Notes: a model not told the origin generated them from the sequence alone. Numbered from the stretch's first letter, positions 10,759 through 62,961 are shown. The stretch is 64,000 nt of DNA from a virus (IMGVR_UViG_3300043078_000170), one strand, 5' to 3'. Made by a program: numbers and translations.

Positions 10759-10807
10759 ACACCTAGCCTTTTTATTTAAATTCAAAACCGTATTAAACTA
10801 TATTCGT

Positions 10808-13325: not shown

Positions 13326-13413
13326 GTATATATTATTAAGGTGTAAAGAGTTAAATACTCTTTACACTTTTTTATTATATTAAAATCTTTTTAAATTATA
13401 GGAGGAAAAAATA

Positions 13414-21576: not shown

Positions 21577-21640
21577 ATAAATATAATAGAACGTTTTAAA
21601 TGATAAAATTTAAATATATATTATAGTTATGTAATAAGAG

Positions 21641-21779
21641 AGATAATGAATCCAATGCTTCTTTTAATTAAGTTTGGAGTTTATATGTTCCCTTAAAAAC
21701 TCTTGGTTGAAATGATATATACCGTATAAGAGTTCAATAAAGGTAAATAGTATAAATAATTATCAATTGGAGGTATATT
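21641..21779 (+). ncRNA. Conserved structured 5' leader RNA, copy 1 (putative)
   Basis: Colinear with 58346..58487; nested stems with one compensatory change; lies between early promoter 21612..21624 and the RBS. Confidence 0.55.
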
Positions 21780-22130
21780 ATGTTTACTACCAACAATTCT
21801 TTCACTAACCTTTCCGATGAAGCACGAGCTAAGATTAGTAAGCTTGGAACTGTCACTATTAACCCTCACAAAATGGGTGTAGGTTATCAAGGCAATTTCA
21901 ATGCTCCTAACGGTTGGCGAATTTCCTTCATCAAGTTTCCTGGTAGTTATGGATCTAAAAACGATCTCTGGGAAGCTGCCATCCTTGATAAGGAAGGGAA
22001 ACTTTGTTATACAACTGATTTGACAAATGATGTCATTGGTTACCTTGACGAAGATTCCTTGTTCCAGCTTTGTGTAATTCTTACTTATCTCATTGATGAG
22101 AATGGTAAGCTTACACATCTTCTGAAGTAA
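21780..22130 (+). CDS. Early hypothetical protein
   Basis: GGAGG RBS; F.APNGW.ISFI...GSYG....LWEAAIL...DVIGYL resembles a common small phage protein family. Confidence 0.7.
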   Translation: MFTTNNSFTNLSDEARAKISKLGTVTINPHKMGVGYQGNFNAPNGWRISFIKFPGSYGSKNDLWEAAILDKEGKLCYTTDLTNDVIGYLDEDSLFQLCVILTYLIDENGKLTHLLK

Positions 22131-22203
22131 TAAGGAAAAGGTTAAAGAAAGAAGGTGATAAATAATGACATATAGAATTTTCTATATGTCATTATTTTTT
22201 TTT

Positions 22204-23022
22204 TTAGTTGTTAGACGAAGCAGTTATTAAATTAATAATTGCTTGATATTCATCTTTAAGTGTCATACCATAATAAACATTATTAACTTCTTCAATATTT
22301 TCCATTTCATCAATCTGATTCTTTAAAAGATTATAATAAGTTGTATGATATGTAATCCAAGCAGTAGCAGTTTGGACTAATGTAATCATTTCTTCTGGTG
22401 TAAATATTTTACATACTTTACCATCAGCATGATAAGGAACGCTTTGACCTAATTGTGCTAATGAATATAATGATGTAAGATTTATTTGGTCAGTTGTATT
22501 TAATCTATAATGTTCATCATTTACATCAATACCATTAGTAATAGTGGTTTGACATATAGCACACATTTCAGTAATTTTTTTATTTTTTTCTTCTAATAAA
22601 GCATCTTCTTCAGAAAGTTCTTCATCACTTTCTAATATATTAATTTTATTTCTAATATCTGTTCTACTAGATAATAATTGTGAAAAATCATAAGGTAAAA
22701 CAGAACCTAACATATAACTTTCAGCACATTTAATTACTTGATAATCAGTATTAGTTAAAGATTGTTTTAAGTTTTCTTTTTCCTTTTCTTTATTTTCTAA
22801 AGCTTCTTCAACTTTTGCTCTTTCTATATAATTATCAAAATTAGTTTCAATATCATTAATTATATTTTCTTTACTAGAAGATATTAAAATTGAATATTCA
22901 TTATAAAGATATAATTCATCATTTTTTTTACTTATATTTTCTCTTAGATATATTTTATATATACTAGGAGTAATTTCTTTATAAGAATATTTTTCTACAA
23001 TTTCTTTAGAATATTTAATCAT
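22204..23022 (-). CDS. Tail-fibre-associated/assembly protein (DUF4376-like C-terminus)
   Basis: LTNTDYQVIKCAE; HYRLNTTDQINL..YHADG..C; located at the end of the fibre operon. Confidence 0.6.
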   Translation of the reverse strand: MIKYSKEIVEKYSYKEITPSIYKIYLRENISKKNDELYLYNEYSILISSSKENIINDIETNFDNYIERAKVEEALENKEKEKENLKQSLTNTDYQVIKCAESYMLGSVLPYDFSQLLSSRTDIRNKINILESDEELSEEDALLEEKNKKITEMCAICQTTITNGIDVNDEHYRLNTTDQINLTSLYSLAQLGQSVPYHADGKVCKIFTPEEMITLVQTATAWITYHTTYYNLLKNQIDEMENIEEVNNVYYGMTLKDEYQAIINLITASSNN

Positions 23023-33950: not shown

Positions 33951-35045
33951 ATGAAGACTAAAACTAATGAAGAGTTCTTAAATGAAATATATGACTTAGT
34001 ACAGGATGAATATTCTGTACTAAGTAAATATATTAATAATAAAACTAAAATTAAATTTCGTCATAATAAATGCAATAATATATTTGAAATTCAACCAACA
34101 CATTTTTTACAAGGTCAAAGATGTCCTTATTGTAGAAAATATAATCCCATTAAAACTACTTCAACAATTGATAAAGAAATTAAAGAATTAACTAATGGTG
34201 AATATATCTTAGTGGGTGAATATAATAACAATAAAGGCTTTATAACTTTAAAGCATCTTAAATGTAATAAAGAATATAAAGTAAAAGCTCATAGCTTTAT
34301 TAATAATGGAGATAGATGTCCTTACTGTAGTAAAACACACAAGAAAACTACAGAAGAATTTATTAAAGATGTTAATAAGCTTTATGGTGATAACGAATAT
34401 ACAGTATTAAGTCCTTATATTAATAACGCAACTAAAATTAAAGTAAAACATAAATGTGGTTATATTTATGAAACAACTCCTAGAAATTTTTTACAGCATT
34501 TTGGATGTCCTAAATGTGCTAATAATATTAAAAAAACTTTAAAAGATTTTAAAGAAGAAGTTAATAGATTAGTAAATGATGAATATACCGTTATAGGAAA
34601 TTATATAAATACAGATACTAATATAAAAATTAAACATGAAAAATGTGGATTTGAATATTATGTAACTCCAAATAATTTCTTAAAAGGTCAAAGATGTCCT
34701 AAATGTAAAAGATCAAAAGGAGAAGAAAGGATAGCTAAATGGCTTAAAGATAATAACTATAATTTTGAAACTCAATATACCTTTGAAGATTGTAAAAATG
34801 AAAGAGTTCTTCCATTTGATTTTAAATTAGAAAAAAATAATAGAATAATTCTTATAGAATATGATGGAGAATTTCATTATAAGCAACAATTTTATTCAAA
34901 GGACTTTGAACTACAGAAGAAAAGAGATTCTATTAAAGATAATTATTGTAAACAACATGAAGATATTGACTTATATAGAATTCCATATACTGAATTTGAT
35001 AATATTGAAAGTATCTTAGAAGGAATTCTTAATAATTATAAATAA
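33951..35045 (+). CDS. Free-standing homing endonuclease (4 Zn-ribbon repeats + nuclease) between the two rpoB halves
   Basis: Four H..C...RCPxC repeats; LPFDFKL..IEYDGEFH; no group I core seen around it. Confidence 0.8.
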   Translation: MKTKTNEEFLNEIYDLVQDEYSVLSKYINNKTKIKFRHNKCNNIFEIQPTHFLQGQRCPYCRKYNPIKTTSTIDKEIKELTNGEYILVGEYNNNKGFITLKHLKCNKEYKVKAHSFINNGDRCPYCSKTHKKTTEEFIKDVNKLYGDNEYTVLSPYINNATKIKVKHKCGYIYETTPRNFLQHFGCPKCANNIKKTLKDFKEEVNRLVNDEYTVIGNYINTDTNIKIKHEKCGFEYYVTPNNFLKGQRCPKCKRSKGEERIAKWLKDNNYNFETQYTFEDCKNERVLPFDFKLEKNNRIILIEYDGEFHYKQQFYSKDFELQKKRDSIKDNYCKQHEDIDLYRIPYTEFDNIESILEGILNNYK

Positions 35046-35102: not shown

Positions 35103-37515
35103 ATGCACAAACATCCGATTGAATTAGTAGAAGAAAGAGAGAATGAATTTAAAGATAATCATTCTTTCTTAGGTCCAACATGTATGATTCCAGGTTTAGC
35201 TTCAACTGATGCCAACAGAGCTCAAATGGACTCATCGCACTTAGAACAAAGACTACAGGTATTAGAACCTCAAGCACCTTTAATTTATACTGGATTTGAG
35301 AATGAATGGGGTAAGTATTCTTCAGGATATTGCCAACTAAAAGGTAAATGGAAGGTTCTTTGTAAGATTGAAAAGAATGACTATAACTATGATTTAATCA
35401 TTAAGAAGATTAAGAATAGTGAAGAAGAAACTAAGAATTTAAAGAATGGTATTAAACCAGAATTTAATCCAGGTGAATATCATGTAATTCAAAGAAATGA
35501 ATGTACTCATCTTACAGAAAAATATGGTTATAAGCATGATAATAAAATCATTGATTCATTAGAAAAAGGTGATATTATTGAAAATAATACAGTATTATTT
35601 AAAGATAATAACCGTGATGAAGAAATGAATTTAACTCATGGAAGAAATCTTAATGTTGTTTATTTGACTTATGGTGGTCTAACAAATGAAGATGCTATTG
35701 TAATTAGTGAAAGTACTTCTAAGAAAATGGGTCACTATGAAGTTAAAATTGTAGATGTATCATTAAACACTAATGATATATTTGTAAATATGTATGGTAA
35801 TAAAAAATTCTATAAGTCTTTCCCAGATATTGGTGAAGATTGTAAAGATGGATTATTATGTGCAACAAGAAGAATTAATTATTCAACTGCTCCAATTACT
35901 TTAGCTGATACTATTAATCTTATTCCTGAAGATGTAAAGTATAGAGGACATGGTAAAGTAGTTGATCTTCAGGTTATTTCTAATATTGAAAATCCTGAAG
36001 AAGTCTTAGATACAACATATAATAAGCAGATTAAGATTTACTATGATAAACAGCAAAACTATTATAAGAATTTTATTGCTTATGTTGAACCAATTGTTAC
36101 TAATTCAGAAAATAAAGTTAGTAAGGATTTAGTAGATCTTTATAACTATTATTGTAGATTAGTTGATCCGAATAATAAATTCTTAGTAAATGATAATCTA
36201 TTTGATCATCTAAGAATTAAGTTTACTATTCTTGAAGAATGCTCATTAGTTATTGGATCTAAATTGGCAGGACGTTACGGAGATAAAGGTGTTGTTTCAG
36301 AAATTAGACCAGATGATGAAATGCCTAAAGTAACTGATTTTGCTGGTCTTGGCAATCCTGATGAAAATTCTAATGTTAATTTCCAGATTGATATGATATT
36401 AAATCCATTAGGTGTTTCTAATAGACTTAATCCTTCTCAGAATATTGAAACAGAAATTAATTATAATAGTAAATATATTAGATATCAGATGGAACAGAAT
36501 TGGAATGAATGGACTCTTGAAGAAGAAAAGAAGTTTTTAATTGACTATCTTAATGTAGTAGATAAAGAAGAATGTGAAAACATTGAAAAGTTCATGGATA
36601 ATTTATCTGAAGAAGAACTTGAGGAACTACTCTTAGAGATAATTAAAAATGGTATTCCAGTTCATCAAGCACCTTTAAATGGAGCTAAAAATATTGTTGA
36701 TCTAGCAAGAATTTATAATTATACTGGCGTAGATCGTACTAAACTTAAAGATATTACTAATACAGTAATATTTGGTGAAAAGTTTATGATGACGCTTAAG
36801 CATATTCCTGCTTCTAAATTTAGTGCAAGAAGTGTTGATCAATTAAGTATTAAGAATATTCCTGTTAAAAGTAATTTGTATAAAGAATATAAGTCTGATT
36901 ATTCTACTAATGCTATCAAGATCGGTAAATTTTGCTGATGTAAAACTCCTTTAATTGCTGGAAACTCCTTAGTATAAGGACAATCAGCAGCTAATTATTC
37001 TAAGAATTCTTAGAATAAAAGTTCAACGACTATCGAAACCATAAGCTATTATTGAATAGCTGAAGAAGGAAGTAGAGTAGAGCCAAGTGGTTTAGGTTTA
37101 GAGCAATAATCTTATAATTCCTAATTAAATCGAAATGGGGAGCATTTGTTATTATCCAATAACAATGAAGATATAGTCTCAACTCTAGATATAAATAAAA
37201 CTAGAGAAGTTCATAAGAGAACTGCATAAGATTAACGACCTTATGTGAAGATAATTGGAAATGGAAAATATAGGACTTGCTTTAGCAAATCCTGCAAATA
37301 AAAAAGCTATGGAGATTAATAAAAATTATCTTGATGCTTTTGCAAACAATGAAAAAATGAGAATGGATTTAATTGAAACTCAATTATCAGATGATCCTTA
37401 TTGTTTTGACATTGAAAAGTCTGATACTCGTTCAGAAAATTCTAAGATGTTAAGAGCATTCTTAAATTGTATGCAATTAGATATTGAAGAAGATGAAGAG
37501 AATTTTGACGAATAA
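35103..37515 (+). CDS. rpoB: RNA polymerase beta subunit, C-terminal half; exons 35103..36926 and 37258..37515 (about 693 aa)
   Basis: DANRAQM, GLTNEDAIVIS, GSKLAGRYGDKGVVS, DMILNPLGVSNRLN, LKH; splicing restores IKIG|EME (conserved GEME). Confidence 0.92.
36927..37257 (+). mobile_element. Group I intron (331 nt, no ORF) in rpoB-C
   Basis: P1 AUCGGU/GCUGAU; AATTGCTGGAAACTCC, AATCAGCAGC, GTTCAACGACTA, AAGATATAGTC; terminal G at 37257. Confidence 0.92.
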
Positions 37516-40355: not shown

Positions 40356-43300
40356 ATGGCTAAAAATGACGATAAAAAGCAAGCTGAAGAGCTTAAAAAG
40401 AATACTAAAACGAGAATAGGTTTGTTTAGTCGTAACAATTTCTCCAATAAAGTAAGTAACAATCAAAAAAATATTAAAGATGATTTAAACGAACAAGACA
40501 GAAATATAAATTCAGCTTTATTTGGTGGTTATGAAAATACTATTGATCAAATTAATAATACAGAATTAGATCCTACAAAGGCTCTTGAGAAAAAATTAGA
40601 AACTATTAATAATAAATTTAAACCAATAATTGGCGGAAATCCAATGGAATTCTTAAACAGAATTGAAATGGATAATAAAACATCTAATAATAATCCTGCT
40701 GATAAAAATAAAAATAATGGAAAAAATGGAAGAATTAAAAAATTAGAAAATATGCTTAAAAATTCTAATGGTGAATTCTTTCTTGAAGAAAAGGATAGAT
40801 TTTTTAAATATGAAGATTATCGTTTGATTGATTCATATATTCCAGAAGTTTCTAAGTGTTTAGATTTATTTAGAGATTGTATTTTATCACCAGATGATTT
40901 AACTAAAAGATCTTTAAATTATTATTATAATGGAGTAAGTATTGAAGGAAATGAAAATCCAGAAAATAAATTTATTAATAGTAATTTAGAATTATTAGAA
41001 AAAACTTATGATCTTAAAAAGATTATTAGAACGGATATTAGAGAAGCTTGTCAATTAGGTGATTTATTTTATTTATTAATGCCATATGAAGTAGGATTTA
41101 CTAAAATATTTAAAGAAGATAATGTAAATGAATCTTTAGAACATGATTCAAATTTATATGGTGATTATATTACTGAAGATATGTTAAATCTAGATAATGA
41201 TGAGGATTTTAATTCTTTATTTGATGATATGATTTATCTAAATGAAACATCTAATAGAGCTAAAGAAAAGAAAGAAAATATTGAAAGAGCTAAAAAAGAT
41301 ATTTTAGACTCTATTAATAATAATATTAAATTCTATAAAGATCCAACAGATATTCTTTCTGAGAAGAAACAAGAACAACAAAAATCAAAAGATATGAAAG
41401 GTATTAATATTAACGGTAGTATATTTAAAAAATTACCTCCTGAAAATATTATAGTACTAGAAATTGATGATCAAATACTTGGTTATATTTATATTGAAAA
41501 GAATAATATAAATCTACAACATGATAAACAAGGTTCTAGAAATAATAACCCTAATTCATTAAGATCTGGTAATACTGGTTCTTCTATCAATACTTCTGAT
41601 AGTTTAGGTTATGGTTCTAATGATGTATTTAATTCTAGATATGATTATCTTAATAGAGACCAGACACAAATTAAATCTAAATATGCTTTAATATCTCAGA
41701 TTTTTATTAAAGGTATTTCAAAGAAAATTAATAAAGACTTTTTAGTAAGAAATCAGGAGTTTAAAGATTTAATATATACTTTGGTACATGAAGAATATAT
41801 TACTAAAAAAGAAGTTAAAATGACGTTTATTGAACCTCAATATATACATCATCTTAAATTAAGCAGTACTGATATTTATGGTGTAAGTAAAATTAGTAAG
41901 AGTGTATTTTTCTGTAAGATTTATTTAAGTCATTTATTAACTAATTTAATGCAAAAAATTATAAGAGGTCGTGATAAACGAGCGTTCTATATAGAAACTG
42001 GTTTAGATGACGACATGGAAGGTGCAATTCAAGGATTTATTAGAGATATTAAATCTAAAGAACTTACTTCAGGTCATTTAAAGAATATTACAACTATTTT
42101 AAATAGTGTTGGTAGTTTTGAAGATTACTATATTCCTACTATTGATGGACAGAGATCAGTTGAGATTAACATATCAGTCTCCTTATTATCGAAAGATAAT
42201 TTGTAAAATTTCGTGAACTGCTGGGAATTCCTTAGAGCTTTATAGGCTGAAACGGAATAAGTGATTATAGACGGTATAGCTTAAGAACTATAAAGATTGG
42301 ATAATCAGCAACTAAGAATTCTTTTTTTTTTATATTATTGAAAAGGATAAGAATAAAATGAGTGCTAAAAGAAAAACACATGAAGAGTTTATTAAAGAAG
42401 TTAAAGAATTAGTAAATGAAGAATATACAGTATTAGAAAAGTATAAGTCTTCTTCAATTAAAATAAAGATAAGACACAATACTTGTAATAATATTTATGA
42501 AGTAACTCCTAATAAATTTTTACAAGGTAGAAGATGTCCTTATTGTAAATCAAAAGCTATAAGTAAATCATTAATAAGAACTCAAAAAGAGTTTGAAGAT
42601 ATTATTAATAATAAATTTAATGGTGAATATACAGTATTAGGTAATTATATAAATAATAGTGTTAAATTAGAAATAAAACATAATAAGTGTAAGAATACTT
42701 GGATGGTTTCACCTACTAATATTTTAAATAATAGAAGTACTTGTCCTTATTGTTCTGGAAAACATAAATATACAACTAAAGAATATTATAATAAAATTAA
42801 AAATGATACTAATGGTGAATATATTTTAATTAGTGATTATATTAATAATAAAACTAAAGTTAAAATAAAACATACAGTATGTAATAATACATATGAAGTA
42901 AAACCATATCATTTCAATAATGGAACAAGATGTCCTTATTGTTCTAATCATAATACATTAACTTTAGAAAATATTAAAGATATAATTGAAAATAATTTTA
43001 ATTATACAGTTTTACCAGATACTAATTATACAGGATATAAAGACAAATGTTTACATTTAAAGCATAATTTATGTAATAATGATTTTATGATAGATTATGA
43101 TCATTTTAAACAAGGAACAAGATGTCCTAAATGTAATATGTCTTCAGGTGAAGAAATAATTTATAATTATTTAAAAGAAAATAATTTAGAATTTATTAGA
43201 GAATATACTTTTAATGATTTATACGATAAAGATATTAATAAACCTTTAAGATTTGATTTTAGAGTTAACTTAAATAATGATTATATTTTAATTGAATTTG

Positions 43301-45185
43301 ATGGAAAACAACATTTTGAAAAATGTTGGTATGACACTGATGAAGATTTAAAACATAGACAATATTTAGATGAAAAGAAAAATAATTATTGTATTAAGCA
43401 TAATATTCATTTACTTAGAATATCTTATAAAGAAATAAATAATATAGATAATATATTAAAAGAAGAATTAAAGCTCAACGACTAAGTGATTATAAGTATA
43501 ATCCAGTGCGAAACACCTAAGTCTTTTTATTTAAGATATGGTGAAGATATAGTCTGAACTTAAGTGTAATGCTTAAGCAGTTTTAAGAAAGGTAAATTGT
43601 TAAATGAGAAAAACACAAGAACAATTTGAAGATGAAATTAATAATAAATTTAATGGTGAATATACAGTATTAGGTAAATATATTAATAATGGAACTAAGA
43701 TTAAAATAAGACATAATAAATGTAATAATATTTGGGAGGTAACGCCTACTAATATTTTAAATAATAGAAGTACTTGTCCTTATTGTTGTAAGAATCCTAG
43801 ATATACTACAGAAATGTTTAAAAATAAGATTAAAGAATTAACTAATGATGAATATAAATTACAATCAGAATATATTAATACAAAAACTAATATTACTTTA
43901 ATTCATAAAAAATGTGGAAATAAATTTGAATTAAAACCAAATGATTTTATTTCTAATGGACAACGTTGTCCTATATGTACAAAAGAAAAACAATATTCAG
44001 CTAAAAGAAAGACTAATGAAATTTTTTTAAAAGAAGTCTTTAATTTAGTTGGTGATGAATATACTTTCTTAGAAAAGTATATTAATAATTCTACTAAAAT
44101 AAAAGTAAGACATAATAAATGTAATAATGAATATAGTGTTACACCTATTAAGTTTTTAAGTGGTAGAAGATGTCCTTATTGTAAGAAATCTTTTGGAGAA
44201 TTAAAGATTAAATCATTATTAGAAAATATGAATATTAATTTTATTCAAGAATATAGATTCGATGATTGTAAATATGAAAGAACTTTACCATTTGATTTTT
44301 ATTTACCAGATAAAAATATTTGTATAGAATATGATGGAGAATTTCATTATTCAGTTCAATATTATAAAGATGATTTAATTAAACAACAAAAACGTGATAA
44401 TATTAAGAATGAATACTGCAAAAATCATAATATTAAATTAATTAGAATATCTTATAAAGATAAAAATAATATTGAATCTATTCTTAAAACGTATTTGAAT
44501 TAACGACTCAAATAGAACATAATGTGATACTGTTCCAGGTATGGATGTAGAAATGGAAAATGAATTTACTCAAATGTTATTAAAATCAATTATCACAGGG
44601 ATGAACGTACCATACAATTATATCGATTCAACTCAGGAAATTGATTTTGCTAGGTCTTTAACAATGACTAATAATCCTTTTGTAAGAGCTATTATTAATG
44701 ACCAAGAAGAATTTGGTAATTTTTATAGTAAGATTATTAGAGAATTATATAAAAATGAATTTGTTAAAGAAACTGGTGGTAAAAAGAAAAGAGTTAGTAG
44801 AAAAACTAAGAATGCTTATTTAAATATAGCTATTGATAATCTAGAACTTAGATTTCCTACTCCTATTTATCTTGTATTAGGTAATATGAATGAACAAATT
44901 CAGAATGCACAACAAACTGCTGAATTTATTACTACTACATATTATCCTGACGATCCTACAGGACAATCTATTGATGCATATCAAAATGAAGTCAATAAGG
45001 CTAATTTTAGAAAAGAATTATATAAAAAGCATTTACTTCCTTCATTGGAATGGGATTCTTTTGATGAAATTTATAAAAAAGTTAGTCAAAATGCTATTGA
45101 AAATGCTATTACTGGTACAATTAATTTTGCTCCAGAAGCTAAAAAGAAGAATGAGCTTGATATGTTAGAAGAAGATGAATTTTAA
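40356..45185 (+). CDS. Portal protein (T4 gp20-like); exons 40356..42166 and 44525..45185 (about 823 aa)
   Basis: YRLIDSYIPEV, RGRDKRAFYIETG; spliced EDYYIPTIDGQRSVEI-DTVPG parallels gp20 EDYWL.RRDG...TEVDTLPG. Confidence 0.8.
42358..43485 (+). CDS. Intron-encoded endonuclease 1 (in P6)
   Basis: Four Zn-ribbon repeats; LRFDFRV..IEFDGKQH; stop codon lies within the CAACGACTAA core element. Confidence 0.8.
   Translation: MSAKRKTHEEFIKEVKELVNEEYTVLEKYKSSSIKIKIRHNTCNNIYEVTPNKFLQGRRCPYCKSKAISKSLIRTQKEFEDIINNKFNGEYTVLGNYINNSVKLEIKHNKCKNTWMVSPTNILNNRSTCPYCSGKHKYTTKEYYNKIKNDTNGEYILISDYINNKTKVKIKHTVCNNTYEVKPYHFNNGTRCPYCSNHNTLTLENIKDIIENNFNYTVLPDTNYTGYKDKCLHLKHNLCNNDFMIDYDHFKQGTRCPKCNMSSGEEIIYNYLKENNLEFIREYTFNDLYDKDINKPLRFDFRVNLNNDYILIEFDGKQHFEKCWYDTDEDLKHRQYLDEKKNNYCIKHNIHLLRISYKEINNIDNILKEELKLND
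43604..44503 (+). CDS. Intron-encoded endonuclease 2 (in P9 region)
   Basis: Three Zn-ribbon repeats; LPFDFYL..IEYDGEFH; downstream of AAGATATAGTC. Confidence 0.8.
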   Translation: MRKTQEQFEDEINNKFNGEYTVLGKYINNGTKIKIRHNKCNNIWEVTPTNILNNRSTCPYCCKNPRYTTEMFKNKIKELTNDEYKLQSEYINTKTNITLIHKKCGNKFELKPNDFISNGQRCPICTKEKQYSAKRKTNEIFLKEVFNLVGDEYTFLEKYINNSTKIKVRHNKCNNEYSVTPIKFLSGRRCPYCKKSFGELKIKSLLENMNINFIQEYRFDDCKYERTLPFDFYLPDKNICIEYDGEFHYSVQYYKDDLIKQQKRDNIKNEYCKNHNIKLIRISYKDKNNIESILKTYLN

Positions 45186-46236: not shown

Positions 46237-49200
46237 TTAAATTGAAGCAGGACAATCAATATTAATTACGATTCTTTCAATTACACCAGTGAATTGAAGT
46301 GTAACGTCTACACGAACAATCTTTTGGATAATATCATAATCAGAAGCATAAACATCAGCTGTTGCAACAGTGCAAGCACCATTGTTAATCCAGTTAGTTA
46401 AGTAACTATTAATTTCAGCAGCCATTGCACTTCTTGTTTCAGAAGTATTAAATTCAAATTGATATGTCTTAGCAATTTTTTCAACATTTCTCTTAACTTT
46501 TAACATTACGAGCATGTTGTTAATCTGTCCTAAAGGACCAGTTGTATAGTTTGTATTCTGAGCACCTATTCTAATAGTAGTAATATCCTTTTCAAGATAG
46601 TTTACCTTATTAGTATAGAGCTTTTCTTTTTGTTCTTCATTTGGATACCAGTCATTAGAAATAAATCCACCAACTACACCACGTCTAGAACCAGCCATAG
46701 GCATATGTCTACCATAGTTATCAATATGCTTACCAAGTAAATCAGCAAGAATATAGGTAGAAGTTAAATTAATATTCTTAGATGTATATTCATCATACCA
46801 AACCTGAGATTGAGAAATAATAGACATGAAGTAAGTAGAATTTGTAAATCCTGTCTTCCAGTCTAAGCAATCTTGGATAGTATTCTGAACTTTAGTATCA
46901 GCCCAATAGAAGAAGTCTTGTCTTTCATCTCTAGCTAATGTGATGATTGCATTCTTAACTGCATCTTCATAGTTAGCATCAAGTATATGGTCAAATTCAT
47001 ATAAGTCCTTATTAAGTACATCTTCATTCCATGTACCCTTATAAGCCTTAATACGAACATCATTAATCTTATTCTTACGAAGTTTTAATGCAGCACTTGT
47101 ACTATTATCATAAGTGAAGCAACCGTCAGAACCTTCAGCAAATCCTAAAGGAGCATTAATATCAGTTACAAGGTTATCATAGCAAAGTGTATTTAATGAT
47201 ACAAGAACCTTATCCTGTTTTTCAATATTAGACTTTACAATATTCTTATTTTCCTTTGCAATAGAGATACTATTAATAATATCTTGAGCACAATAGTATG
47301 GATACTGTAATACAGGTGATTCTTGTGCTGTAGAAGAATCTAAAGGTAATGAATTTTCATTAAGTGAAACTTCTAAAGCATTATTAATTAAATTAGTAAC
47401 TTCAGTCTGTGTTAAATCTTCATTATCTTCACTATTATAATATTCCCAAAGAGTATTTACAGAATATGAAGAACCATTATATTTAATAACAGTATTAGCT
47501 ACATCAATTGTACCAATTAAAGTATTAATAATTTCTGTAATATACTTTTCATTAATAAATGCAGTGATAATATTATGAACATCAGATAATTGACTTAAGC
47601 TTTCAGAAAGAATTTGATAAATTGTTTCATACTTTGTTTGTGTTAAACCATCTACAGTATAGCCATTCTTAATATCATCATACATATCAATTAATGCTTG
47701 ACCACCATAAATCGGTGTTCTACTTTCACCATAATGGTTTTGTCCAGTAATATTAATTAATATCTTTTCAAGAATTGGTAATATACCTCTATAAACGGTA
47801 TCATCATTAGTTTTACCATAATTACTAATATTATATGTAATACCTAATGGGTCAATTTCTGTTTCATTTGTAGCACTTTCAGAGAAATAATAAGCATAAG
47901 GTTCATCATTAGAAGCTTTATATAAAACTTCAAGATCTTGTACTTTATAAGTCTGATAAAGAACTGTATTAATAATATTTGTGATTAAGTAATTAGTTTC
48001 AGTTACAATAGTATCCATTGCTGTATATAATGTATCTAATGTTTCATCACCAAGAATTACAGAAGCATTATTTCTAGCTAAATCAGTACTTAAATCTAAG
48101 ACAGTATTCTTATGAACATTTAATAATGTTAAATAAGTAGATCTTAAATCAAGATCATTATTAATTGTCTTCATTAAATACTTAAGTGAAGAATAGTTAG
48201 AGTAGTCAGTAATAGAACCTTGATTATTAACGATAGATTCAAAACCACCAACAAAAAGATTTAAGATAGTTGTTAATGAGTAATCAGAAGCTGAAATAGA
48301 AGTATACTTCTTAGCATTTGTAATATCATCAACAATAGTATCTTTACCCTTGCCATCTAATTCTCTAGAAATTAATGAAGCATAACTAGCTACCTTATTA
48401 TAGCACTGAGATAACTTACCATTCTTTAATTTTTCAGTAAATACTTCATCAAATACAGGTACTCCTTCAACATCTTCCTTTTTAAAATAATAATTAGAAA
48501 GAAGCTTTGTAATAGATGTATAATTAATATGGTTACTGTCTATAAAATCAGTTATAATTTGGAATGAAGTTAAAGGAATATTAGCTAAAGTATATTTTTT
48601 AGTGGTACCTGGAATTTCATAGTTACCTTCAATATTAAATTGATAGTTCATATATGCACTCATAAATCTTATAAGATTAGTTAAATTAAAGAATTTAACA
48701 CCACTAGAGATATACTTTTCTTTATTATCTATAAACTCTTTATAATTAGCTATTTCATCAGTATTTATAGAACTTTTTTCATTACTTACTACTAAATAAT
48801 TATTAAAGTTATTATCATTAAAATGGGTATAAATTGTATTTAATAAATCATAATAATCTTTAAATGTATAATCATATCCAATTTCGTTATTATCATCAGT
48901 ATAATTTAATACAATATTATAACTATAACCATCTACTGTATGTTTTGGTAGATCAGAGCTTTTTAAAGGTTCAGCATTTTCATCAGTAATATGGAATATT
49001 GTATATTTATCTTCATAAGCCCAATGAGCTATATGCTGACCGGTTTTCGGAATATATAAATATTTTTCAATCAAGGTGCTAAAAATTGTTCCAACAACAG
49101 CTTTTTTAAAAGATCCTATTGTAAGGCTAGTTCCTTTAATAGGTTGTAGTTTAGCTTCACCATTAATATTATAAACTTTTATATAATTGCCAAATTTATT

Positions 49201-51216
49201 TACAGTTCCATCAGAATCATAGCAAGTAAAATCAACAATTGGTATATAATTATATTTAATATCATCATCTGTATCTGAAATAAAATCATCTATATAAGTA
49301 GGATATAATGAACTATACTTACTGCTTGTTCCATCATTATTATGATAACTAAATTTATTATCTGGAAAATAGTCATTAGTATCTGTTAATCCTCTATTAA
49401 GATAATTATTGTTTGTACCATCAATATAAGCAATATTATTTACAATATATTCATAAATTGTTTTATATGTACCATCAAAATATTCTTTAGTTAAAGGCTG
49501 ATAATAATGACCATTATTAATTCCTTTTGTGTCTAAATAAAGATTTTTATAAGAAGTAGTAGATGAATTAGAATTAAATATAGAATAAATTTTAGCATCA
49601 TCACTAACATAATCATAATATAAATCGGCTTCAAGATAATCATCAGAAATTACAAATCCATTATTATTATAAATATCATAGTTAGCTATAAACTGGACAT
49701 ATTTCATAAAGTTATGATAGTAACTAATTAAATGAGTATCTGTTGCTGAAATATAGCCATCTTCGGTAATTGTACTCATCATTTGAGATGTAGAAGTATA
49801 AACTGTATCAACATTTTCATATCCAGTAACTTCACTACCTACATAATTACCATTTTTGTCTTTTAATGCTTTATTGATAATTTCTTGTGTTCTTAAGTAC
49901 CAAGAATGATCTTTTGTATCATCTTTACCAACATAATTAGATTTAAATGTTGCATTATTATAAATATAATAATATCTATCAGAATCCTTTTCATTAGCAT
50001 AAATTAAAGTATTAACTTTATCTGCTAATAAATAAGTATTAGGAGCAAAGTCGCTTAAAATATTACCAATAACTAAATTTAAGTTCTGTGTAATTCTATC
50101 ATTTAATAACCAGTTATAGAAACCTCTCATATAATCAGTTACATATTTCTGATTATTATAAATAACTCTACGACTATTATCAGCAATATCAACAATATCT
50201 GAAGTAGTTTCATCATTATTAGAAATATTTAAAATATAATCGCCATTTGACTGTAGAGCAATACCAGTTGTAGAATATTTTCTTAAAGCAATATGAACAT
50301 CTTCATCCTTACCAGTTGCAGAACTAAAGTATGTTTCACTTTCACCAGTAGAAAGAATTCTACTCTGACCAGAAAGAATATCGATTATATAAGGATCAAC
50401 TTCATCATTGATTATAGTAGCAAGCTTAATATAGTTTTCAGTATTAAACTTAATCTTAATATACTCAGAATAACTATTAACGACATTTTCAATAAACATT
50501 GACTTCTGACTATTTGGATCAATAGCATCTGGATCAAAGCTTACATAATAAGGTCCGTCAATAATATCATAAGTAGAACCACTGTATTTAATAACTTCAA
50601 AAGTATAAATACGGCTTGTCATACTAGCATCATAGGAAGAATTTAAGCGAATTCTAAAACCAAGATCGTTATAATATTCACCTCTTCCTTCAGGATATGC
50701 AATAAAGATAAAGTTATCAATATAGCCATCAGTAGTAGGATAATCAGAACGATCTTCTGATAATTCACTATCTAATAAAGCTTCTGATGTATTATTAACA
50801 CCAATATAAGTAACTAAAGGTCTTAAATAAACATCATTAATTTTAGTTTCATCACCATCAGCGTTGATTACTGCTTTACCATTAGTAGAATTCTTATACT
50901 GAATGTTTAAAATTGCATGAGCATAAGAAGCATCATCAGGTAATAAACGCATAATAACAGCTGAATTACCGTTAGTTAACCACTTTTCGACATTGTAACC
51001 TGCCTGACCATACTTATCAAGGTTAGGTTCACCATACTTGAATAAATATTCAGAAAGTGTATTAACTTGTTGTAATTTATTATCTACACCATGATCAAAA
51101 ACGTCTGCTACAAAAAGAACTTCTCTACTTACAGATGTATCGTAGTTATAATTCTCAGTAGTAATATAAGTTTTAATCGAAGGGTGAAGATACTTTAAAG
51201 TAATTTCACTAGCCAT
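46237..51216 (-). CDS. Tail sheath protein with very large central insertion (1659 aa)
   Basis: N-terminal HPSI..KYGEPNLDKYGQ..MRLLPDDA; C-terminal ILDANY..ARDERQDFF..AGSRRG..EKLYTNKVNY..YQFEFN..VTLQFTGVIERIVINI. Confidence 0.85.
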   Translation of the reverse strand: MASEITLKYLHPSIKTYITTENYNYDTSVSREVLFVADVFDHGVDNKLQQVNTLSEYLFKYGEPNLDKYGQAGYNVEKWLTNGNSAVIMRLLPDDASYAHAILNIQYKNSTNGKAVINADGDETKINDVYLRPLVTYIGVNNTSEALLDSELSEDRSDYPTTDGYIDNFIFIAYPEGRGEYYNDLGFRIRLNSSYDASMTSRIYTFEVIKYSGSTYDIIDGPYYVSFDPDAIDPNSQKSMFIENVVNSYSEYIKIKFNTENYIKLATIINDEVDPYIIDILSGQSRILSTGESETYFSSATGKDEDVHIALRKYSTTGIALQSNGDYILNISNNDETTSDIVDIADNSRRVIYNNQKYVTDYMRGFYNWLLNDRITQNLNLVIGNILSDFAPNTYLLADKVNTLIYANEKDSDRYYYIYNNATFKSNYVGKDDTKDHSWYLRTQEIINKALKDKNGNYVGSEVTGYENVDTVYTSTSQMMSTITEDGYISATDTHLISYYHNFMKYVQFIANYDIYNNNGFVISDDYLEADLYYDYVSDDAKIYSIFNSNSSTTSYKNLYLDTKGINNGHYYQPLTKEYFDGTYKTIYEYIVNNIAYIDGTNNNYLNRGLTDTNDYFPDNKFSYHNNDGTSSKYSSLYPTYIDDFISDTDDDIKYNYIPIVDFTCYDSDGTVNKFGNYIKVYNINGEAKLQPIKGTSLTIGSFKKAVVGTIFSTLIEKYLYIPKTGQHIAHWAYEDKYTIFHITDENAEPLKSSDLPKHTVDGYSYNIVLNYTDDNNEIGYDYTFKDYYDLLNTIYTHFNDNNFNNYLVVSNEKSSINTDEIANYKEFIDNKEKYISSGVKFFNLTNLIRFMSAYMNYQFNIEGNYEIPGTTKKYTLANIPLTSFQIITDFIDSNHINYTSITKLLSNYYFKKEDVEGVPVFDEVFTEKLKNGKLSQCYNKVASYASLISRELDGKGKDTIVDDITNAKKYTSISASDYSLTTILNLFVGGFESIVNNQGSITDYSNYSSLKYLMKTINNDLDLRSTYLTLLNVHKNTVLDLSTDLARNNASVILGDETLDTLYTAMDTIVTETNYLITNIINTVLYQTYKVQDLEVLYKASNDEPYAYYFSESATNETEIDPLGITYNISNYGKTNDDTVYRGILPILEKILINITGQNHYGESRTPIYGGQALIDMYDDIKNGYTVDGLTQTKYETIYQILSESLSQLSDVHNIITAFINEKYITEIINTLIGTIDVANTVIKYNGSSYSVNTLWEYYNSEDNEDLTQTEVTNLINNALEVSLNENSLPLDSSTAQESPVLQYPYYCAQDIINSISIAKENKNIVKSNIEKQDKVLVSLNTLCYDNLVTDINAPLGFAEGSDGCFTYDNSTSAALKLRKNKINDVRIKAYKGTWNEDVLNKDLYEFDHILDANYEDAVKNAIITLARDERQDFFYWADTKVQNTIQDCLDWKTGFTNSTYFMSIISQSQVWYDEYTSKNINLTSTYILADLLGKHIDNYGRHMPMAGSRRGVVGGFISNDWYPNEEQKEKLYTNKVNYLEKDITTIRIGAQNTNYTTGPLGQINNMLVMLKVKRNVEKIAKTYQFEFNTSETRSAMAAEINSYLTNWINNGACTVATADVYASDYDIIQKIVRVDVTLQFTGVIERIVINIDCPASI

Positions 51217-57753: not shown

Positions 57754-57860
57754 AAAAATAATTCTATAAGATTTTATAAAGTCTTATTATTTAACTTTAT
57801 ATTAAAAATAATCCTTAAGAGTTTTAAACTCTTAAGGATTTTATTATATAAAATTTTAAA

Positions 57861-58223: not shown

Positions 58224-58345
58224 AAATATTTTACCTCTTTTCTAAATAAAAATTATAATAAAAAGTTTTTTTTTTGAATCGTATTTAATATATTACTCAT
58301 ATATATATTATAATTATGAATAATATATATTATTCATATTAGTGC

Positions 58346-58487
58346 AGATATTAAATCCAATAAGCACTTTTAATAAATATTGGAGTTTGTATGTTCCCTT
58401 GAAGAAACTCTTGGTTGAAAAGATATATACCATATAAGAGATAACAGAGTAAAGGTAAATAGTACAAATATATCTTTGGAGGTCATT
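58346..58487 (+). ncRNA. Conserved structured 5' leader RNA, copy 2 (putative)
   Basis: Homologous to 21641..21779; downstream of early motif 58299..58311. Confidence 0.55.
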
Positions 58488-58907
58488 ATGACTAAGAATA
58501 TTAATGTAACAGTAACAGCAGCAATCGCAACCGTTATTAGAGAATACAATATCTCCATTAAGATCAAAAGCAGAAATGACATAATTAAGGAGACTGGAAA
58601 AATTTCAATTTGTGCTTGCACAACTTTGGAAAAAGGAAAGTGTCCAATTATTTATTTGGTGAAGGAAGATCTTAGCAAAATCAATAATGACGAATTGCAA
58701 TTTATCATCGGACATGAGCTGGGACATATTATCACAGATAGTGCAGATGAAGAACTTGCTGATCGGTACGGTGAAGCCTGCTCAAAAGGAAGAAACGTTA
58801 ATAAGAAGGTTATATTCCAAAAAATTAAAAAAATCGAAGAAGGCTTGTTAAAAGCAAATCCAAATTTAAGAAAAAGCAATCGTTATGGACATCGGGAAAA
58901 TGCATAA
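58488..58907 (+). CDS. Small early Zn-metallopeptidase-like protein (HELGH); likely start ATG 58488
   Basis: GGAGG RBS 5 nt before ATG; ELQFIIGHELGHI...EELADRYG. Confidence 0.7.
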   Translation: MTKNINVTVTAAIATVIREYNISIKIKSRNDIIKETGKISICACTTLEKGKCPIIYLVKEDLSKINNDELQFIIGHELGHIITDSADEELADRYGEACSKGRNVNKKVIFQKIKKIEEGLLKANPNLRKSNRYGHRENA

Positions 58908-59027
58908 ATGATTAATAAAAATAGAGATGACACGACATAATTATATATACATATATGGTCGTCTCTTTTTTTTTGTATTTTTAATAAAAACTATACTTTA
59001 TATTTTTAAATAGAGAGGTGAAACTAA

Positions 59028-60191
59028 GTGTCAACATTTTTTAATGATGAAGTATATCCAATGATTAAAACAAATGAAACACCTGCAATTACTAAACAAT
59101 TTGAAACTTATGTACATAAATATATGGATAAAAATTCTGAAGTGTTATATCACAATATTCCTAGTAAACGATTATTTTTTACTCCTTCAGATATTAAATA
59201 TCCTTTTGATCTTTTTAAAATATCAGTAGATGAAATAGATAATGTAGTAGCTAAAATTAAAAAAACTAAAGAATGCTATGGTGTTATTAATCAGGTAAAC
59301 TTTCCATTAAACTTTTTAATGGTAAATTTAGTTAGATATTATCATTTAGCTAACAATAAAGCAGGATTACAAGTATCTTTAATGTATTTAACACTATATC
59401 AATATGCTGCATTACATGCAAAATATTTTCAAAAGTTCTTACCTAATGAAGATTGTATGCAATTTACATTTAATAGAGTTTCAGATAAATATTATTTTAG
59501 AAAATATCAATCAGTATTTAAAGCATTATTTGCAACAGTTATTAACGCTCATGAAACACAAAAGAAATCTTTAGAATCTAAAAATGATATGGATATTTTA
59601 AGTTATTTATTAGCGATTAGAACTAGATTAAATAACCAAATGAAATCTTTTGTTAATGAATATATGATAGATTTTAATAATAAAAAATATCTTAAATTAC
59701 AACAAGATTCACAAGATGAAGAAAATTATCGTGAAACATCTAATATGTCTGCTGATTTAGTAATGGTAGTAAATAAAGCTTATAATAAATTTACTACTAC
59801 TAAAGTAGATCCAGTTATTTTAAGAACTGCTTGCGGTATTTGTAAAGCAGAACAAAGTGTAATGAAATTAGCTTTAGAGAATATTAAAGATAATGAATTA
59901 GATTCAATTAGATTATTATTATTATCAATGGTTCAATTATATATTTATAATAGTAATAATAATTCAAATGAAATTGGATCACAGAAATTTGTTACTTATA
60001 TGATATCTGCTTATAGTAAGTCTAATAGTAAAAATGATATAAGCTTAAATATTAAAAAAGTATTAGATAAATTTTTAACTAAATATTGCAATAGATATTC
60101 TAATACTGAAAGAGAAGCTACTAAAGTTATATATCGTAAAGCATTATATATTTATATGGTATTATTAATTAATAAATCATATAATTCATAA
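59028..60191 (+). CDS. Helical jumbo-phage protein; candidate sigma-like RNAP subunit
   Basis: GAGGTG RBS with GTG start; AACT-N6-TA upstream; mostly alpha-helical pattern. The CDS is well supported; the function is a weak inference. Confidence 0.35.
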   Translation: MSTFFNDEVYPMIKTNETPAITKQFETYVHKYMDKNSEVLYHNIPSKRLFFTPSDIKYPFDLFKISVDEIDNVVAKIKKTKECYGVINQVNFPLNFLMVNLVRYYHLANNKAGLQVSLMYLTLYQYAALHAKYFQKFLPNEDCMQFTFNRVSDKYYFRKYQSVFKALFATVINAHETQKKSLESKNDMDILSYLLAIRTRLNNQMKSFVNEYMIDFNNKKYLKLQQDSQDEENYRETSNMSADLVMVVNKAYNKFTTTKVDPVILRTACGICKAEQSVMKLALENIKDNELDSIRLLLLSMVQLYIYNSNNNSNEIGSQKFVTYMISAYSKSNSKNDISLNIKKVLDKFLTKYCNRYSNTEREATKVIYRKALYIYMVLLINKSYNS

Positions 60192-60510: not shown

Positions 60511-60554
60511 ATTATACCCTATAGAGTTTAAAACTCTATAGGGCTTTTTATAAT

Positions 60555-62830: not shown

Positions 62831-62961
62831 ATTATCATCTCCTTTTATTAGATAATAATTTTCTGTTTTTTATTTAAATTTTCAAATATACATTATATTA
62901 ATGATAAAGTTAAAAATTTTTAGCTTTATAAAATATTATTTAATAAAAGGAGTAAATTATT

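Follow-up and report, generated by a model that had tools for sequence, protein, structure and literature searches.

A pseudoknotted RNA domain in the leaders of unrelated small genes of an AR9/PBS1-like jumbo phage

Why would two genes lying 37 kb apart in one phage genome, with no mutual similarity between their products, be preceded by nearly the same stretch of about 140 nucleotides? The question is raised by a 64,000-nt piece of viral DNA (IMGVR_UViG_3300043078_000170), the whole of which was analysed and is referred to below as the window. A first-pass annotation had picked out two colinear leaders in it and proposed that they are structured RNAs shared by non-homologous ORFs. The positions were right: the leaders at 21641-21779 (copy A) and 58346-58487 (copy B) align colinearly, with 81% identity over ~240 nt including the promoter. 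A core 21-mer and a core 36-mer each occur exactly twice in the window, with none expected from 100 shuffles. The ORFs behind the two copies are indeed dissimilar.

The repeated leader and its cassettes

The tail sheath encoded in the window (1659 aa, 46237-51216) shares 40-43% identity with the sheaths of the Bacillus phages AR9, PBS1, and BpSp and of Staphylococcus jumbo phages, and the other genes include those for a major head protein, a terminase, DNA polymerase pieces, and a phage RNA polymerase (RNAP) beta homologue (gene at 35103). Judged by sequence, the window is part of an uncultured AR9/PBS1-like jumbo phage. Only the last ~350 residues of the sheath match sheath families, and the protein carries a long N-terminal extension besides. 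Two paralogous HNH homing-endonuclease genes (33951-35045 and 42358-43485), located between polymerase and virion-protein gene pieces and beside the RNAP beta gene, are likely intron- or intein-associated insertions. No tRNA or tmRNA was found in the window by ARAGORN.

Copies A and B both reside in divergent intergenic regions (Table 1), each, as first described, between an early promoter and a ribosome-binding site: an AR9-class promoter lies upstream and the Shine-Dalgarno (SD) sequence directly 3' of the fold. In the AR9 promoter data that we drew on (Lavysh et al. 2017, PMC5312081), 41 early promoters were mapped by dRNA-seq and primer extension, have the consensus AAATATATATTAT-N6-G(+1), and are read by the virion RNA polymerase. 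About ten sites of this type are present on the plus strand of the window. Because the promoters of both leaders match the mapped consensus, transcription is predicted to start upstream of the element, at 21631 and 58318, which speaks against the downstream start site that had been named as fatal to the RNA model. These starts are placed by promoter homology; that of copy A is only 5 nt before the fold, which begins at +6 of the transcript. A promoter-like match at 58321 was rejected as a second promoter, as it is the 3' arm of the 5' hairpin of copy B. Upstream of the promoter cores is a CGT(A/T)TTTAAT box, which resembles the (c)cgtattaaaa found before many AR9 early promoters. In Table S2 of PMC5312081, many of the mapped early promoters have ccgtattaaaa upstream, a feature on which the text consulted does not comment. 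A (C)CGTATT(T)AA(A/T) box ~20-30 nt upstream of an early core was also seen at 10781-10792 of the window and at L212:1424-1434.

Table 1. Features of cassettes A and B in the window and the ORFs carried by each leader type
Feature	Position	Strand	Basis or remarks
Gene start flanking copy A	21576	-	
Gene start flanking copy B	58223	-	
ORF start flanking copy A	21780	+	
ORF start flanking copy B	58488	+	
A, upstream motif ACGTTTTAAAT	21590..21601	+	~30 nt before promoter core; resembles AR9 (c)cgtattaaaa box
A, early promoter AAATATATATTAT-N6-G	21612..21631	+	Exact match to AR9 early consensus; predicted start G 21631
A, structured domain	21636..21765	+	Hand segmentation, pair table, RNAalifold, counts on model-made alignment
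A, PK1	21636-40 / 21659-63	+	3' strand inside loop L1
A, P0	21641-46 / 21760-65	+	
A, P1	21651-55 / 21674-78	+	
A, P2	21679-85 / 21751-57	+	
A, P3	21691-94 / 21740-43	+	
A, P4	21700-04 / 21728-32	+	
A, P5	21705-07 / 21721-23	+	
A, apical loop L5	21708-20	+	
A, invariant internal loops	21686-90; 21744-50	+	UGUUC; UAAAUAG
A, SD GGAGG	21769-73	+	6-nt spacer, ATG 21780; unpaired in consensus structure
A, cargo gene	21780..22130	+	116 aa, phrog_4074; monocistronic; function not assigned
A, terminator	22165..22206	.	Hairpin + T-run, from sequence
B, upstream motif CGTATTTAAT	58280..58289	+	Compared with AR9 Table S2 (PMC5312081)
B, early promoter ATATATATATTAT-N6-G	58299..58318	+	1 mismatch to consensus; predicted start G 58318
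B, extra 5'-terminal hairpin GAAUAAUAU/AUAUUAUUC	58318..58335	+	Sequence, MFE fold
B, structured domain	58341..58475	+	Segmentation, pair table, RNAalifold, PK1/P0 tests
B, PK1	58341-45 / 58364-68	+	AGUGC / GCACU, the latter in L1
B, P0	58346-51 / 58470-75	+	
B, P1	58356-61 / 58379-84	+	
B, P2	58385-91 / 58463-69	+	
B, P3	58397-400 / 58452-55	+	
B, P4	58408-12 / 58436-40	+	
B, P5	58413-15 / 58429-31	+	
B, L5	58416-28	+	
B, internal loops	58392-96; 58401-07; 58441-51; 58456-62	+	UGUUC; GAAGAAA; AUAACAGAGUA; UAAAUAG
B, SD GGAGG	58478-82	+	5-nt spacer, ATG 58488
B, cargo gene	58488..58907	+	139 aa, HELGH motif; monocistronic; weak Peptidase_M48 match, E 8e-5
B, terminator	58923..58976	+	Hairpin + T9, from sequence
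c1, cargo ORF			124 aa
c2, cargo ORF			155 aa
c3, cargo ORF			135 aa
D, cargo ORF			82 aa, with membrane segment

The first-pass annotation counted two copies only, and there are more. Further copies were found by pattern scans and nhmmer, and then with a covariance model (R1). A near-identical IMG/VR record (G001) carries copies A and B. In a 134-kb record (G005), R1 detected three copies, namely one A-like, one B-like, and one of a further type, D; G005 is near-identical to the window, and its copy D shows a third copy ~30 kb past the window's end. Three more copies, c1, c2, and c3, were found by R1 within 4 kb in the records G002 and G004. Beside c3, G002 shares 83-85% identity with the first 500 nt of the window, and copies similar to c1-c3 may therefore lie just upstream of it. 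The divergent copies were found only in records of metagenomes 3300043004, 3300043019, 3300043020, and 3300043094. The family thus comprises at least six types at 63-98% identity, all with the same promoter and each before a different small ORF. Among the six cargo ORFs, no mutual similarity, shared family, or clue from PDB or Atlas was found. The protein encoded by gene B, whose HELGH motif is of the zinc-protease type, could be a minimal metalloprotease made early in infection.

The cassettes have a common order: terminator, AR9-type promoter, usually a 5' hairpin, the domain, the SD sequence, a small orphan ORF, and a terminator. Similarity between copies extends from the terminator T-tract to codon 2-3 and then ends. 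Terminator hairpins precede c2, c3, and D, and a separate 5'-terminal hairpin stands ahead of the domain in five of the six types (B, c1, c2, c3, and D). Cassettes A, B, c1, and c2 are monocistronic, each closed by its own terminator, beyond which lie convergent genes or genes that have promoters of their own. The domain was never seen without an ORF, and in A and B there is no terminator between fold and ORF. Since neighbouring early genes manage with leaders of only 30-65 nt, the domain marks a subset of early genes.

Several further features were observed around the cassettes. Nearly all predicted early transcripts of the window start with a hairpin directly at +1 and have leaders of no more than 40-65 nt (predicted +1 sites 10827, 11248, 13343, 15744, 20774, 32313, 35063, and 62903), e.g. 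GUAAAGAGUU..ACUCUUUAC at 13343 and GAUAAAGUU..AGCUUUAU at 62903. This looks like systematic protection of 5' ends, as would be expected in a host with a 5'-to-3' exonuclease. Upstream of the gene at 59028 (GTG start, phrog_2921) is the sequence AACT-N6-TA (58985-59030), close to the AR9 late promoter AACA-N6-TA/G; a terminator separates this gene from gene B, so that early and late units follow one another within a short distance. At 57810-57840 and 60516-60544, perfect palindromes form two hairpins of 12-14 bp, with T-runs flanking them on both strands; they look like bidirectional terminators between convergent genes. Cassette c1 is followed by a 137-aa cytidine/dCMP-deaminase-like early gene (L007:3877-4290, minus strand) with its own early promoter and a 29-nt leader, a gene of interest in a phage group with uracil DNA. 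A possible start-codon hairpin (window 58483-58493; L212:1636-1649) reads GUCA-UUA-UGAC in B, c1, and c2 and GCUA-UUA-UGGC in D, which gives one two-sided change; its short length and sparse sampling leave it a candidate only.

At gathering thresholds, Rfam 15 gave no match in the whole window, and searches of the individual copies at E ≤ 10 returned only noise (17.8 bits or less, where gathering scores are 39-125), in keeping with the initial statement that the RNA is not a recognized one. No match to copy A was found by blastn in 50,697 phage records. R1 detected nothing significant in the cultured relatives AR9, BpSp, Internexus, SA1, and Madawaska (best E 0.22), nor did it hit any of three IMG/VR relatives whose tail sheaths are 77-82% identical; one of the three is a complete 306-kb genome. 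In that genome, a distant homologue of gene A has the same promoter and a leader of only ~50 nt, and most of ~55 early-promoter-like sites are followed by short leaders. Pattern scans of viral contigs recovered real copies only in 33000430xx records, and the loci obtained from metagenomes (46) and from bacterial and archaeal genomes (19) were all chance matches, none of them hit by the model; these scans required exact matches to the conserved cores and would miss divergent members. Because the Rfam, R1, and contig searches found no copies elsewhere, the leader family appears to be young and confined to one lineage, as far as the searched collections show.

The complete relative contains another long leader, of ~320 nt, behind an early promoter and before a gene for a 301-aa protein (L307:9993-10316, minus strand; G008 ~149993-150316). 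Its G+C content is above that of the genome, its first 183 nt are unusually stable (z -3.5), and two alternative partners are available to its 5' end. With R1 the alignment is weak (12.5 bits); this may be a structured leader of another kind or else a very remote member of the family.

The fold and its support

The element is a sense-strand, pseudoknotted three-way-junction RNA domain of ~130-135 nt. It consists of a pseudoknot (PK1) that joins the 5' end to the P1 loop, a closing helix (P0), a hairpin (P1), and a long arm (P2-P3-P4-P5) whose internal and apical loops are invariant. The five stems listed in the first-pass annotation are all present and are each backed by compensatory changes in additional copies; the A-U to G-C exchange noted between TTT(A/G)TA and TA(T/C)AAA is real and belongs to P2. 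That list lacked the closing helix P0 and the pseudoknot PK1, and the domain begins at least 5 nt further 5' than proposed, with the 5' strand of PK1.

Base pairing was counted on two alignments. In a hand-curated alignment of eight distinct copies (63-98% identity), segmented by hand and fitted to the structure, 244 of 250 cells are canonical and two-sided changes occur in 17 of 35 pairs, distributed over P0, P1, P2, P3, P4, and P5. RNAalifold, run independently on this alignment, returned the same fold. Because the curated alignment had been fitted to the structure, the counting was repeated on a model-made alignment (A6), in which 89.7% of the cells pair, compared with 35-53% when the 3' partners were slid. 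Two-sided changes were found in 15 pairs, against 2-6 after sliding, and the observed values were reached in none of 500 shuffles. Covariation beyond the original two copies, on which the RNA model had been said to depend, is thus seen across the eight distinct copies.

The paired strands vary together. For example, P1 occurs as UCCAAU/AUUGGA, UCUAAC/GUUAGA, UCUAGUA/UACUAGA, and UCCAC/GUGGA; P3 as CCUU/AAGG and CCUC/GAGG; P4 as CUCUU/AAGAG, CUCAU/AUGAG, and CAUGUAU/AUACAUG; and P5 as GGU/ACC, GACC/GGUC, and UGCC/GGCG. P0, which encloses the whole domain, appears for instance as AGAUAU/AUAUCU, GAUAAU/AUUAUC, and GAGUAU/AUAUUC, and its complementarity exceeds that of random window sequence in each copy (p 0.005-0.014). 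PK1 pairs the 5-6 nt just 5' of P0 with the 5' part of the P1 loop, in the forms AGUGC/GCACU, AGUGA/UCACU, AGAGU/GCUCU, and AUAAGG/CCUUAU, with a weaker AAGAG/UUCUU in A. Because MAFFT sets the copies in different registers here, which precludes a column-wise count, PK1 was tested by swap and background controls. Cognate strands pair at -4.96 kcal/mol, compared with -2.17 kcal/mol for non-cognate strands (rank 2 of 120 permutations), and against random 9-mers four of the five types gave p values of 0.001-0.02.

G·U pairs are present at the closing pair of P2 and, in D and c3, in P0, P3, and P5. They work only on the plus strand and would be A·C on the other, which identifies the sense RNA as the folded molecule and disfavours a DNA-level palindrome or protein-binding site. 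Coding on either strand is excluded by indels of 1, 2, and 4 nt between copies. A mini-ORF, AUG UUC CCU (MFP-stop in A, B, and D), was rejected as a leader peptide because it keeps neither frame nor length in G001B, c1, c2, and c3 and lacks its SD in c1, D, and c3. A pseudoknot between L5 and the 3' tail was likewise rejected, as this pairing does not exceed chance (Fisher 0.11).

The support for the structure is covariation rather than thermodynamic stability, since the folding energy of single sequences is no better than that of shuffled ones (z 0.08 and 0.91 for copies A and B). The number of independent events is modest, because the copies are paralogues within one narrow lineage of uncultured phages and may exchange by gene conversion. 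Among copies with 63-98% pairwise identity, 27 of 49 unpaired columns are invariant, as are 25 of 56 paired ones, and notable conserved unpaired stretches are UGUUC, UGAAA..AUA, and GGUAAA. As the unpaired positions are conserved as much as the paired ones, specific recognition or tertiary contacts are indicated; tertiary folding alone, without a ligand, could account for the loop conservation. P0 ends 2-4 nt before the SD (GGAG), including in the most divergent copies (A, B, and c3), and the SD lies outside all conserved helices. On these data, the leader is a well-supported uncatalogued family of structured 5' leader RNAs that probably act in cis.

Possible roles of the leader

The explanation to which we give most weight, while holding it as tentative and at somewhat less than an even chance, is that the domain is a cis-acting handle through which a trans-acting factor controls how an early regulon is translated or how stable its messages are. 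A role in cis is favoured by the constant placement of the fold beside an unpaired SD, and the many invariant unpaired nucleotides suggest that the domain is recognized by something. The domain would influence both the neighbouring ribosome-binding site and what becomes of the message, and, as a common handle, would allow a set of early messages to be translated, silenced, or degraded as a group. The factor would most probably be a protein, either made by the phage later in infection or encoded by the host; bound beside the SD, such a factor would either recruit the 30S subunit or keep it out sterically. No conserved alternative pairing able to form a switch was found in the P1-SD and L5-tail pairings tested.

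The unpaired SD and this absence of a conserved alternative pairing also fit a portable leader that works constitutively, an unlikely but still substantial rival. Here the knotted fold, without any ligand, would shield the message from 5'-to-3' and endonucleolytic decay and insulate the ribosome site, so that any newly captured ORF is expressed reliably. The domain always sits in swappable promoter-leader-ATG cassettes, in which similarity runs from the T-tract to codon 2-3 only and the cargo genes are unrelated, and the hairpins that begin nearly all early transcripts of the window suggest strong 5' decay pressure. However, five of the six types already possess a separate 5'-terminal hairpin, neighbouring early genes do well with short leaders, and a pseudoknot of 130 nt with 27 invariant unpaired positions exceeds what insulation needs.

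A bolder form of control by a bound factor, which we consider rather improbable, is that the domain belongs to a new class of RNA sensors and switches a whole regulon of orphan early genes on or off. It would then be either an aptamer, with a small molecule or second messenger as its ligand, or the operator of a dedicated phage RNA-binding regulator. Such an aptamer would report the state of the infected cell, control would be post-transcriptional and independent of the phage RNA polymerases, and the genes of the regulon might serve in host takeover or anti-defence.

Taken specifically as a riboswitch for a metabolite or second messenger, with the ligand stabilizing P0 and PK1 and altering ribosome access, the leader has an aptamer-like anatomy of junction, pseudoknot, covarying stems, and invariant loops; its closing helix abuts the SD, and it is present in multiple copies per genome before unrelated genes, as second-messenger riboswitches are. 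That c1 adjoins the early gene for a dCMP-deaminase-like protein, in a group of phages whose DNA contains uracil, points the same way, but that gene has its own promoter and short leader. The conserved domain backed by covariation is there; the mutually exclusive pairing of an expression platform is not, since neither an SD-sequestering helix nor a terminator is conserved. With cargo genes that lack a common function and no relative in Rfam, this interpretation is improbable.

Still less probable is that the domain is itself the product, an abundant early RNA acting in trans, e.g. by sequestering a host protein or a defence sensor as a decoy or sponge, and either processed from the leaders or working as part of them. 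At least six copies under strong early promoters, with an elaborate fold and conserved loops, would suit such an RNA. It would not explain why the domain is never found without an ORF, why it keeps the same distance to the SD even where the copies differ most, or why no terminator separates the two.

The first-pass annotation had proposed that the 5' UCCAA can pair alternatively with the UUGGA at the SD. As a mechanism, the 5' strand of P1 would alternate between its P1 partner, a pseudo-SD whose UUGGAG resembles an SD, and the real SD, thereby toggling translation. Only A, G001A, and B show complementarity above chance (p ~0.02-0.03). The P1 5' strand of c1, D, and c3 has covaried with the P1 3' strand and no longer matches the SD, which leaves the pairing at chance level (p 0.2-0.3, and only 3 bp in c3). 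The switch is not kept in these copies, and we regard it as very improbable.

Least probable of all is an antitermination RNA of the HK022 put type acting on a phage RNA polymerase, or a self-cleaving ribozyme: the location directly downstream of early promoters in several leaders, as in putL/putR, and the pseudoknotted fold are outweighed by the terminator-closed, monocistronic cassettes A, B, c1, and c2, whose downstream neighbours are convergent or separately promoted and offer nothing to read through into, by the absence of any model match even at E ≤ 10 (hammerhead, twister, pistol, hatchet, and HDV-like), by the AR9-type start just 5 nt before the fold in copy A, and by a topology, with the PK1 3' strand inside the P1 loop, that by inspection is unlike the nested double pseudoknot of HDV.

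Comparison with known systems and implications

Protein-bound translational operators include the T4 gene 32 leader pseudoknot, E. coli rpsO/S15, thrS, and the ribosomal-protein leaders. As in the present leader, a structured, sometimes pseudoknotted, RNA stands directly 5' of the ribosome site; in those operators it is recognized by a protein that blocks or traps the 30S subunit. They are single-copy and autoregulatory, whereas this leader is common to at least six unrelated genes, and it has no sequence or Rfam similarity to them. Phage and multi-copy riboswitch aptamers, such as c-di-GMP-I, share with it the covarying stems, the invariant junction and loops, and the location in the 5' leaders of unrelated genes; unlike them, it has no conserved expression platform, no clue to a ligand in gene content, and no Rfam match. 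By analogy, these two groups appear to be the closest functional counterparts. With the 5' stabilizers of Bacillus and its phages (5'-terminal stem-loops, SP82, aprE, and the cryIIIA STAB-SD), the domain shares being a structure at or near the 5' end of messages, here in a Firmicute-type phage, and a pseudo-SD, UUGGAG followed by AUG, lies inside the leaders of A, B, and c2. In contrast to the stabilizers, that pseudo-SD is paired in P1 and lost in c1, D, and c3, and in five of the six types the domain is preceded by a separate 5' hairpin.

The cassettes share with the early units of AR9 the promoter class AAATATATATTAT-N6-G with an upstream cgtattaaa box and the placement of early genes in divergent intergenic regions adjoining late genes (PMC5312081). 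Some AR9 early UTRs are 100-340 nt long, and its authors predict an early 5' UTR motif to which no function is assigned (Lavysh et al. 2017, PMC5312081). R1 has no significant match in AR9, unlike in the present lineage, and neither a structure nor covariation is known to have been described for that motif. The PeSL elements of the T4-type phages RB49 and phi1, which consist of a sigma-70-like promoter and a terminator stem-loop without a long leader (Arbiol et al. 2010, PMC2839356), are likewise short conserved regulatory cassettes, repeated before early genes that are small and for the most part orphans; similarity does not extend into the cargo (PMC2839356), which suggests that such cassettes are shuffled by recombination. 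Unlike PeSL, the present cassettes use a phage-RNAP promoter, the conserved part is a 130-nt pseudoknotted RNA between transcription start and SD, and selection in the leader of this phage acts on base pairing.

AR9/PBS1-type jumbo phages transcribe their own genes with their own RNA polymerases, and, to our knowledge, almost nothing is known about post-transcriptional control in them. The pseudoknotted leaders described here make up a new and well-supported RNA family, which sets apart a subset of the early cassettes, monocistronic ones with an orphan gene as cargo. Should a protein or ligand act on the domain, the domain would define a post-transcriptional regulon and could serve in tracking down the regulator and in predicting which of the orphan genes work together. 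If the domain works constitutively, it would be a natural portable insulator of the ribosome-binding site and stabilizer of the message that could be reused in Gram-positive expression systems.
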